From assembly GCF_003334255.1 (NCBI RefSeq), contig NZ_QOWU01000041.1: a stretch of DNA of 25,350 nucleotides; one strand, 5' to 3'. Shown here piece by piece: positions 15,001-18,000 of this stretch; the first letter of the stretch is position 1, and the number at the start of each line of letters is the position of its first letter. The DNA comes from Escherichia coli. GTDB lineage: Bacteria; Pseudomonadota; Gammaproteobacteria; Enterobacterales; Enterobacteriaceae. The position numbers were made by a program.

Positions 15001-18000
15001 CGGGATATCGCTTTCCTGGCGGCGACTGAGCGTCTCTGCCCGGCTCAGTTGATCTTTCATGGCGTCAATCTGCGACATCAGGGAATGCTGCTGCTCCTGC
15101 AGTTCCCGCTGCTTCTGTTCGTAGGTTTTCTGCACCCCTGCCACAGCGTCATTCACCTGACCGGACACATCCGTGCTCCGCCTGCGCAGCTGCTCGTTAT
15201 CCTTAAGAAGTTGCGAGTTCTGTTTCTCCAGCGTTCTCTGATTGTCCCGCACCTGGTTCATACGGGCGACCAGCGTCCGTAATGTGTCTTCCGGCGTGTC
15301 ACCTTCCACCCCAAGAGCCCGTAGCTCTTCTGACGATAATCCGGATAAGGTCCGGGCCTGCTCCCCGCGGTCAGCAACATTTTCCTGCGTTTTGCAGCTT
15401 TTCATCGTGACTGCAAGCCCCACCAGAACAACAGCGGGCACCACAAATTTCACCAGCGCGTTGGACTTAATCTGCATGCGTCACCTCCCCGCCCCTGCGG
15501 GACGTTACAGGCTCTTCCACAAACGCCTTCTCCGGACTGCCCGCCGTCACCACATACAGCATCGTGGTATCTTCCGGCGTACCGGCAGCACCCAGCCAGC
15601 GATGCTGGAAAGTCGCCGCCACAAAACGCCCCTGAAGGGCCCGGGGATCAAGCACAATACGCCTGCTTACCGTACTGGTGAGTTTCAGGGCCACCACCGT
15701 CCGGCCACCGGCTGCCCATGCCGCCACCGGTGAAACAGTCAGCGGCTCTGACGGATAAACCGTGGTGATCTGCCGGGGAAGATGTGGCACCACCGGTCTG
15801 ATCCCCGCCACCGGTTCAAGGGTGCGCAGTGGTGCATACAGGGACTGTGCCGCATACCGGGTCAACAGCACCGGCAGGGGCTCAGCATAACGGGGCTCCG
15901 TGCGACGGGCCTGAGTACCATTATCCGTCCCCGCCTTCCCGTTGCTGCTGCGACTTTTCACAGTCTGTACATCACTCCCGGCAGCACGGCTGACCGTACT
16001 CACGTCTCCGTCATACACGATACGCACGGGCTCCGTGGTTCCCTTTTCCCCCGCAGTGACATCCAGCAGGATCATTTCCCCGCTTTCCACATCCTGCAGC
16101 TGAACCCGGGTCTGCGGAAATGCACTGTCTGCCTTCAGGTAGACCGCACCACCGGTACTCTGGACCCGCAGTTTTCCATTCAGCGCCGGAGGGAAGCCCA
16201 CCCGCACATTTTTATCCGCAAAAATCACCCGCTCCTGCCCCACCTTCAGCGGGATATTCAGCGGTATACGCTCCCACTTCATCAGTTCATCCGCCTGTGC
16301 CGTCAGACTCAGCACTGACAACGACATCATCATGACGGCAGGACGCAGCAGACTGCACACAATGCCGGCTTTCATTCACCACCTCCCTTCACGGCTTCCA
16401 GACGCTGTGGCGTGGAGCTGTAGCAGTCCAGCACAAGACCAAACGGATTACGCTCCGGATCGCCCTCCATCCGCATCACTTTCATCGGATAGCGGATCAG
16501 TGCCCGTTTGACCGGCTCTGCATGAAAATACTCATCCGCCACCAGGTCGAGACGGACAAGCCAGTTGTCCCGCCCCTCCACCGTGACCGGGTCACGGTTG
16601 TAACGTCCGCCGTAACCGTGCTCAGGGATCTCATACACCACACGAACACGATCCAGCAGCTCTCCTGCATCCTTACGACGACGGGCATCCGTCTCCAGGA
16701 TCTCCCGGCATGACGGTGTCAGATAGGCCGACAGTGCATGTATTTTCGCCGGATAATCCACCTCGCCATTTTTCGGCCAGGCATTCAGTTGCTGAAAAAT
16801 GTAGAACGCAAAGGAATAGACCGTTGACGGAGGAACTTCCCACCACGGACGCGTACTGCCGGAACGCAGATCCGGCGGATTATGAATGGTCAGCCGGTCA
16901 GGGGCCGTCATCCACCCGATAGTGACCATAAGAAGAAGTCCGCACAGCACACCGCTGAACACCCTCAGCGTCAGAATATGCTGATCACGATCCTTCAGGG
17001 CATGACGAAAACGGCTCATGATTTACCCCCTCTGACACGGGTACGGCGCAGGGACCAGCCCTGGGCCTCCCTGATAAGCCCGGAGCGTCCCACTCCCAGC
17101 GCCGCTTTTTTCTCCTCAAGACGCTGCCATAGCCAGTTATCCGGTTTCCCCCGCTTCAGACGGCTGATCCATGCCCCCCCGGTCCAGACAAGAACCAGCG
17201 GGGTCAGCAGGGCGCCAGTGGGTATAATCACCCACCCGAACACCGGCACAAAAGGAAGTGACCACAGCAGACCGGTGAAGAACCCGGTCAGTGCAGCCAG
17301 CCCCAGTTCCGGGGTGGTGAACCCCCTGAACACCGTCGGTTCGGCGTTCAGACGATCGGGCAGAAAACGAATGGTCTCCATAACCAGCTCCACGGTTTCT
17401 TACAGGATGATGGACGCGGATTTACCAAGCAGCCAGATGACCGCAACCAGCAGTACCACCCCCACCACGACAATGGCCCCGAACTGCCCCCAGCCTTTCT
17501 TGTCATCACGGACTTCAGAAAAGGTGGTAATCGCAGCCTCTGCCACTTTCACAAAGGCAGCCGCGGCGATCACCAGACCAATCAGCACAATGCCATCCTG
17601 GAAATAACCTTTGATTTGCCCGAAAAGTCCGCCACCACCACCGGACGACGGCGGTTCAATCTGCGGCAGATCGGCCAGTGCCGGTGTCAGACTACCCAGC
17701 AAAAACGTCACCATGACCATTCCCGCCAGACGCGCCATCAGGCGCAGACGGCTGACAGTAAGCCCTTTTTTACGCATAGATTTCTCCTTAAAAAGTCACA
17801 CCATGAATCAACCCGCAAACATCCAGATGCTGGCAACCAGCAGCAGAACAGTGCGGGCAGTAAACCAGATAAACGCAGACTCCCTGACGTCACCGTTTCG
17901 CCAGCCAGACCAGACATCCGACAGTCCCCAGGCAGCCCAGAGAAAGAGAACGGCAATCAGTAATCCCAGCGAGGACAGATGCAGCACGTTCAGATCCACA

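Follow-up and report, generated by a model that had tools for sequence, protein, structure and literature searches.

Which protein builds the conjugative pilus of elements with a class G mating-pair-formation system (MPF_G)? Such elements, among them ICEHin1056, ICEclc, PAPI-1/pKLC102, SPI-7 and an island of Shiga toxin-producing Escherichia coli (STEC), spread antibiotic resistance, catabolic and virulence genes, and theirs is the least characterised proteobacterial conjugation class, with a pilus subunit that has never been biochemically identified. The question is raised here by a 25,350-nucleotide stretch of E. coli DNA (contig NZ_QOWU01000041.1 of assembly GCF_003334255.1; hereafter the window), in which a gene of the TIGR03745 (DUF2976) family at 17400-17777 on the minus strand (ATG start, stop codon counted in) encodes a 125-residue precursor. 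An earlier reading of the sequence, referred to below as the original prediction, had proposed this small protein as a candidate pilin. With moderate confidence, we consider this protein to be the precursor form of the MPF_G pilus subunit, the analogue of VirB2 and TraA, of an SPI-7-type integrative and conjugative element (ICE) in E. coli. The family, position and architecture of the protein fit this role, which has already been proposed in the literature, but fold searches gave generic helical hairpins only and a profile comparison with VirB2 stayed at background; our independent tests leave it where it stood, neither strengthened nor overturned.

The novelty of this reading is limited, as the family, the annotation and the candidate pilin role are already in databases and in the literature (2014, 2023). 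The present analysis contributes a cleavage site predicted across the whole family, a start codon that probably needs correcting, the description of a Gly5 run as a variable hinge, the paralogy of TIGR03745 with its upstream neighbour TIGR03758, and the caution that structural similarity to a pilus is non-discriminating for a hairpin fold. The TIGR03745 gene, carried by a tractable E. coli, is a good handle for identifying the MPF_G pilus subunit.

Family membership and place in the secretion operon

Judged by sequence, the 125-residue protein is a bona fide member of TIGR03745/DUF2976 and the ordinary E. coli orthologue of IceB2 of ICEclc and Tfc10 of ICEHin1056. It scored 128.6 bits with the NCBIfam model TIGR03745, whose cut-off is 52.5 (covering 6-105 of the 105 profile positions), and matched Pfam DUF2976 with E = 7e-34 (model positions 1-87 of 87), and DUF2976 was matched by all 104 aligned relatives. 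In a Foldseek search of AFDB50 with the AlphaFold2 model described below, the 50 matches listed came from Enterobacterales, Pasteurellaceae, Pseudomonas, Burkholderiales and Xanthomonas, and all belonged to the same family. A sequence search of the PDB detected no solved structure of the TIGR03745 family or of the neighbouring proteins that were checked.

The F genes run in the order traA-L-E-K-B-V-C. In the window, the minus-strand genes around TIGR03745 form, by their NCBIfam matches, a complete type IV secretion row of the MPF_G (ICEHin1056/ICEclc/SPI-7) type, and both here and in the relative loci L002-L007 the gene sits between TIGR03758 and TIGR03750 within an operon that carries TIGR03744 TraC. 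For the corresponding proteins of ICEHin1056, published profile-level homologies link Tfc11 (the counterpart of TIGR03750) to VirB3/TraL, Tfc12 to VirB8/TraE, Tfc13 to TraK, Tfc14 to TraB, Tfc15 to TraV and Tfc16 to VirB4 (PMC4027160), and Guglielmini et al. (2014, PMC4027160) describe Tfc9 and Tfc10 as the ‘two VirB2-like pilins’ of this class. Gene order equates Tfc9 with TIGR03758 and Tfc10 with TIGR03745. On these homologies and the F order, TIGR03745 holds the traA slot in a row that is collinear with traA-L-E-K-B-V-C of F, and it adjoins homologues of virB3/traL and virB4/traC (NCBIfam matches in the window, with the assignment of TIGR03750 taken from PMC4027160).

Immediate neighbours of the gene are TIGR03758/DUF3262 upstream (17808-18050, minus strand; 80 residues, 77.7 bits in NCBIfam) and TIGR03750/DUF3487 downstream (17016-17393, minus strand; 136.2 bits). 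The rest of the collinear core (10752-17019, minus strand; NCBIfam matches) comprises TIGR03746, which is VirB8-like, TIGR03749, which is TraK/VirB9-like, TIGR03752 with a TrbI/VirB10 domain (E = 1.4e-5), the TraV-like lipoprotein TIGR03751 and the TraC/VirB4 ATPase (TIGR03744), which the F-type TraC model also matched (5e-26). When the TraK-, TraB- and TraV-like neighbours were searched as single sequences against the PDB, nothing matched, and a Pfam scan confirmed the TrbI/VirB10 domain alone, so the collinearity with F rests partly on the published profile comparisons. The order RAQPRD, DUF3262, DUF2976, DUF3487, DUF2895, DUF3438 and onwards to TraC was identical in every informative relative locus (L002-L007).

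Genetic evidence comes from ICEclc, whose 119-residue TIGR03745 protein IceB2 (Orf66625, CAE92917.1) Daveri et al. (2023, PMC10018362) named the ‘candidate major pilin’. Deletion of the segment from orf67231 to iceB2 abolished transfer of ICEclc, and transfer was restored only by orf67001, a member of the TIGR03758 family, and iceB2 together (PMC10018362). In an E. coli isolate from Crohn’s disease, TraC and TraV proteins like those of ICEHin1056 can stand in for their F-plasmid counterparts and bring about polymerisation of F pilin (PMC12491478), so a machine of this class can handle a hairpin subunit of the TraA type.

The same evidence bears on the possibility that the TIGR03745 protein is an unrelated small membrane protein, with a function in entry exclusion or immunity or of a holin-like kind, that travels with the element. 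In favour of it are the generic hairpin fold and weak Pfam matches, at noise level, to many unrelated membrane families, but the place of the protein inside the core secretion operon was invariant in all loci examined, its family comprises 344 clusters (50% identity) and keeps L37, P38 and G106 nearly invariant, and the gene is needed with orf67001 for transfer of ICEclc; we thus regard this explanation as very unlikely.

Precursor, predicted hairpin and Gly run

The open reading frame of the original prediction, which had been given no strand, was borne out on the minus strand with a length of 125 residues. As read from the sequence, its ATG start codon occupies 17775-17777, and a consensus Shine-Dalgarno motif AAGGAG (17784-17789, minus strand) lies 6 nucleotides 5' of it. 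RefSeq/PGAP starts the identical gene at M14, giving 112 residues, and no consensus ribosome-binding site was found before this start. Because AAGGAG precedes M1 and M14 has no such site, the 125-residue product, a form found in many database entries, is likelier than the 112-residue one, and the RefSeq start at M14 (region 17739-17777, minus strand) is probably a start-codon misannotation that cuts off the basic n-region of the leader. Separately, a 210-residue entry labelled Pseudomonas aeruginosa (P0006) consists of a TIGR03745 protein of the E. coli type (96% identity) fused in frame to TIGR03750; this fusion probably stems from a frameshifted or contaminant contig.

All of the features first ascribed to the protein, namely a signal-peptide-like leader, a GGGGG run and two long hydrophobic helices, were recovered from its charges, hydropathy and sequence. 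The predicted Sec/signal-peptidase-I leader (residues 1-35; 17673-17777, minus strand) has a basic n-region (residues 1-16 include six Lys/Arg), a hydrophobic core (17-31) and a c-region P32-A33-L34-A35, followed by D36. For conservation counts, the protein was aligned with 109 intact representatives (110 sequences), and the positions of the cleavage site were scored in 107. At position -1, 86 of these 107 carry A and a further 12 carry G or S (98/107 with A, G or S); at position -3, 88/107 carry A, V or S; and in the x-L-P that follows the site the L is kept in 104/110 and the P in 109/110. The leader itself varies in sequence and length across the family (median 32 residues) and has a conserved end, A-x-A followed by x-L-P, and the Pfam DUF2976 model begins at residue 37. 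Cleavage by signal peptidase I is accordingly predicted after A35 (A-L-A before D36), and the leader cleavage site to which the original prediction had drawn attention is well supported, as a prediction, by family conservation at -1, at -3 and in L-P. The mature protein would then span residues 36-125 (17403-17672, minus strand), 90 residues with a mass of 9224.7 Da if linear and unmodified; across the family, mature length has a median of 90 residues and a range of 87-101. A reading as a lipoprotein was rejected: the Cys that precedes the cleavage motif in some relatives is not conserved and is absent from this protein.

AlphaFold2 modelled the mature part (104-sequence alignment; mean predicted local distance difference test (pLDDT) score of 89.2) as a long alpha-hairpin, in which 15 non-helical residues are followed by a helix of 40 residues, a loop and a helix of 29 residues. 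Helix 1 of the model (residues 51-90; 17508-17627, minus strand; mature 16-55) has an amphipathic start, LFGQIKGYFQDG, and continues as a hydrophobic membrane segment; the five-residue polar loop D91-D-K-K-G95 (DDKKG; 17493-17507, minus strand; mature 56-60) leads to the hydrophobic helix 2 (residues 96-124; 17406-17492, minus strand; mature 61-89), which ends in A-A/S-x-I/V-L. By hydropathy, the two strongly hydrophobic segments run from about 60 to 86 and from about 99 to 124. Conservation marks the loop and the second helix: a basic residue (K/R) stands at 93 in 104/110 sequences, W96 is found in 90/110 and G106 in 108/110, and the protein ends at the C-terminal motif A-A/S-x-I/V-L in 50/110 and within two residues of it in 94/110. 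P43, Y58, D61, G67, L68 and V78 are also strongly conserved.

The Gly5 run (G46-G50; 17628-17642, minus strand; codons GGT GGT GGT GGC GGA) is placed 10 residues past the predicted cleavage, between the Pro-rich N-terminal tail of the mature protein (DLPQIEPPSS) and the start of helix 1, and it is coil in the AlphaFold2 model. A G5 run arose by chance in 0.29% of 200,000 shuffles of the 125-residue protein. Runs of at least five Gly were found in 8 of 148 family representatives, most of which carry two or fewer; G46 is kept in 71/110 sequences, and positions 47-50 are G, D, S, T or N. Among alleles at least 95% identical, the segment reads G4, G5, G6, GGGSG or GGGDG. The linker described in the original prediction is therefore present as a run, but it precedes helix 1 instead of joining the two helices, and at 8/148 it is no feature of the family. 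It looks like a lineage-specific, length-variable form of a small-residue flexible hinge, not a family signature, and since near-identical alleles vary in run length and the codons repeat GGT, this hinge would be slippage-prone and tolerant of changes in length.

The architecture of the TIGR03745 protein is common to TraA and VirB2: a long basic leader that ends in A-x-A, two hydrophobic helices and a short basic loop. In all three the mature N-terminus is small or Gly-rich (AGSSGQD in F, QSAGGGTDP in VirB2 and DLPQIEPPSSGGGGG in the TIGR03745 protein), and in all three the C-terminus lies at the end of helix 2. If the protein is the pilin, its leader of 35 residues, basic and hydrophobic, would target it to the inner membrane, where signal peptidase I would cut after A33-L34-A35, and the 90-residue mature protein, a membrane alpha-hairpin in the model, would have both ends in the periplasm and its loop (R90/K93/K94) in the cytoplasm, as the positive-inside rule suggests. 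Entirely by analogy with the F and T pili, the VirB3/TraL-like, VirB8-like and VirB6-like proteins encoded nearby would work alongside the TraC/VirB4 ATPase to extract the subunits and polymerise them into a conjugative pilus; the loop would line the lumen, and the Pro-rich tail and Gly hinge would lie on the pilus surface. The leaderless paralogue TIGR03758 may be the partner of the TIGR03745 protein in this process (in ICEclc both genes together are needed for transfer).

Tests of pilin identity and the upstream paralogue

The PDB holds both F-type pilins (5LER, 7JSV, 5LEG, 9MOQ) and VirB2 (8CUE, 8FAI, 8EXH). The comparison of a model with VirB2/TraA envisaged in the original prediction turned out to be non-discriminating: AlphaFold2 gave a hairpin, and a Foldseek search of this hairpin against the PDB gave no match at E < 1, with the ATP synthase c subunit and PsbZ as top entries. 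Fold searches returned generic helical hairpins or, in AFDB50, members of the same family, and so tell nothing about pilin identity. Because the hairpin fold is so simple, ‘structural similarity to a conjugative pilus’ is weak evidence. Of the Pfam models PF04956 (TrbC/VirB2), PF05513 (TraA) and PF18895, none matched the protein up to E 10; 5/104 family members matched PF18895 with E no higher than 0.1, a level of noise, and one relative (P0042) carries a precomputed PF04956 match. Pfam matches to T4SS_pilin and DUF4134 were rejected as evidence, since a member-by-member scan found them no commoner than matches to unrelated membrane families.

These searches also bear on whether the protein might be a type IV pilin (PilS2/PilA-like), such as the PAPI-1 and SPI-7 islands carry as well. 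A gene annotated ‘PilL N-terminal domain’ in the same island would suit such a pilin, but a class III signal (a short basic leader, then G before F/M-x-x-x-E) is missing from the sequence, there is no type IV pilin match in Pfam or NCBIfam, and the model has two membrane helices, not one N-terminal helix with a globular head. This identity was rejected, and we give it practically no credence.

Several points weigh against TIGR03745 as the pilus subunit. No member of the family has so far been directly placed in a pilus, tfc9 and tfc10 of ICEHin1056 were listed as untested for pilus formation (2008 review table, PMC2688673), and iceB2 alone could not be deleted from ICEclc (PMC10018362). When two alignments of the family were run as sequence profiles against the PDB, no solved pilin came up, only membrane-composition noise. 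In hhalign, TIGR03745 scored a probability of 0.2-0.3%, equal to that of reversed controls, against a shallow VirB2 alignment built from 120 database proteins named VirB2 (Agrobacterium-type); the published VirB2 homology of the family was thus not reproduced by profile comparison, although this negative carries little weight because the VirB2 profile also misses every other solved conjugative pilin family. Finally, TIGR03758 could be the shaft subunit instead, as it is pilin-like in its model and is also required in ICEclc.

On profile and model evidence, TIGR03758, which has no leader, is a distant paralogue of TIGR03745 with a pilin-like three-helix model. An hhalign comparison with the DUF2976 profile gave a probability of 91.5% (E = 8.8e-7) over 48 columns that cover helix, loop and helix, against 7-11% for reversed controls; the DUF3262 Pfam model was weakly matched by 16/104 DUF2976 members. 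The AlphaFold2 model of TIGR03758, from an alignment of 11 sequences only, has helices at 5-14, 20-51 and 57-79 (pLDDT 84.7). In the same loci TIGR03758 is the faster to diverge, with 14-34% identity compared with 34-53% for TIGR03745.

Were TIGR03758 the shaft, the TIGR03745 protein would be a pilin-like part of the secretion machine, in the inner-membrane complex, the stalk or the base of the pilus. The paralogy itself is consistent with this arrangement, as are the layout of TIGR03758, whose short N-terminal helix and two long hydrophobic helices within 80 residues come near that of mature F pilin, the need for orf67001 alongside iceB2 in ICEclc, and a divergence faster than that of TIGR03745, as reported for F pilin (PMC4027160). 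Evolutionary rate does not decide the matter, however, because VirB2 is highly conserved within its own group. To our knowledge, all characterised conjugative pilins (TraA, TrbC, VirB2, TrhA) are synthesised with a leader that can be cleaved off. It is for this reason that we prefer TIGR03745, which has a leader, over TIGR03758, which has none, as the shaft, and Daveri et al. matched the TIGR03758 homologue of ICEclc to a membrane anchor, not to a pilus (PMC10018362). We hold a TIGR03758 shaft to be unlikely, if well short of negligible.

Both small proteins might instead enter the pilus, as a co-polymer or as a major/minor pair of paralogous hairpins. The two genes were adjacent in every locus examined, are paralogous and are jointly required in ICEclc, and MPF_G was described with the ‘two VirB2-like pilins’ cited above (PMC4027160), but the solved conjugative pilus entries that we retrieved (F-like pilins and VirB2) each list one pilin protein, and we consider such a mixed pilus rather improbable.

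Maturation beyond leader cleavage is a further consideration for TIGR03745 as the pilin. VirB2 is reportedly cyclised head to tail, and cyclisation removes four C-terminal residues from TrbC of RP4 and five from TrhA of R27. In RP4 a dedicated S26-type peptidase, TraF, removes the peptide A-E-I-A from TrbC, and the C-terminal motif of TIGR03745 resembles this peptide, which we take as a lead only. In the ~79 kb of L001 and L009, in which several genes are annotated only as hypothetical, no S26/TraF-like peptidase, TraX-like acetylase or TraQ-like chaperone was annotated. Because half of the TIGR03745 family has nothing beyond the motif, a C-terminal removal step would cut inside A-A-x-I-L. For the E. 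coli protein, the computed mass of D36-L125 would be 9206.7 Da after head-to-tail cyclisation and 9266.8 Da after N-acetylation, and cyclic forms shortened by 4, 5 or 6 C-terminal residues would have 8780.2, 8709.1 or 8622.0 Da. A more speculative and quite doubtful proposal is that the two paralogous hairpins TIGR03758 and TIGR03745 build or nucleate the pilus, and that the near-invariant termini, x-L-P...P and A-A-x-I-L, with the Gly hinge between tail and helix 1, mark a maturation step, for example head-to-tail cyclisation, that would proceed without an element-encoded TraF-like peptidase.

Host island and known counterparts

Besides the collinear core, the MPF_G row on the minus strand includes the coupling protein TraD, TIGR03747, RAQPRD, TIGR03757, TIGR03756 and TIGR03755, and a TraG_N-domain protein, so annotated in RefSeq, is also part of the row. 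At 100% identity, the window matches a chromosomal island of the STEC strain E. coli 2015C-3121, in which the gene is annotated TIGR03745; this island has SPI-7-type replication and partition genes, and subAB subtilase cytotoxin genes lie nearby. As seen in L009 (NZ_CP027340.1, 1700000-1737000), the island is of the SPI-7 type, with dnaB-PI and genes of the STY4528/STY4534 families, and subAB and a sialic-acid utilisation cluster follow ~25 kb past its ParA/integrase/TraI end.

Cargo is found within the secretion row itself. The gene iha for a bifunctional siderophore receptor/adhesin (NF010012, 1480 bits) occupies 7888-9978 of the window on the minus strand (11589-13679 in L001), between TIGR03757 and a small open reading frame upstream of TraC, and is annotated in RefSeq as a pseudogene with an internal stop; it is virulence cargo inserted into the mating-pair-formation operon. 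Between RAQPRD and TIGR03747, an open reading frame of 193 residues on the plus strand (18504-19085; G+C content 0.49 compared with ~0.58) had no NCBIfam match and occupies the slot of the non-essential orf67800 in ICEclc. Positions 1-3000 of the window (3702-6700 in L001) have a G+C content of 0.36-0.43 and hold IS1, an HNH endonuclease, remnants of IS66 and, beside the TraG_N (VirB6-like) gene, a toxin gene of the MazF type; this left end resembles a junk or cargo zone that borders the transfer module.

Among known systems, the cyclic pilins TrbC (RP4) and TrhA (R27) resemble the TIGR03745 protein in the functional class proposed for it and in having conserved terminal residues, its C-terminus A-A/S-x-I/V-L being strongly conserved, but they lose 4-5 C-terminal residues, whereas 50/110 TIGR03745 members have no tail past I-L. 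F TraA (5LER, 9MOQ; relatives 7JSV and 5LEG) is likewise made as a precursor of similar size (121 residues), has a Gly/Ser-rich mature N-terminus and comes first in the traA-L-E-K-B-V-C row; it differs in that no sequence similarity is detectable, in a mature length of 70 residues compared with 90 here, and in the tail, which in TIGR03745 is Pro-rich and non-helical in the model. VirB2 of Agrobacterium (8CUE, 8FAI, 8EXH), also with a 121-residue precursor, is alike in its cleavage between A-x-A and Q, in a GGG within 5 residues of the mature N-terminus, in a pair of hydrophobic helices that has a G-R loop, and in a gene next to virB3-virB4, but stands apart in the profile-profile probability of 0.2-0.3%.

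Closer counterparts come from MPF_G elements. Tfc9 and Tfc10 of ICEHin1056/ICEHin10810 from Haemophilus influenzae share the gene order, and the mutual relatedness of this small pair was reproduced here, unlike their published link to VirB2, which was not reproduced for our family. IceB2 of ICEclc belongs to another host and sublineage (ours being E. coli and SPI-7-type), and its pilin role was itself inferred, from 25.9% identity to VirB2 and an AlphaFold match. A member of the Pseudomonas type (P0126 in locus L002, 119 residues) has 53% identity to the E. coli protein over the mature part, with SGGTG where the latter has GGGGG. IceB2, for its part, belongs to the same family at 119 compared with 125 residues, has a type I signal peptide, and lies, like the E. 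coli gene, among RAQPRD, TIGR03758 and DUF3487 neighbours.

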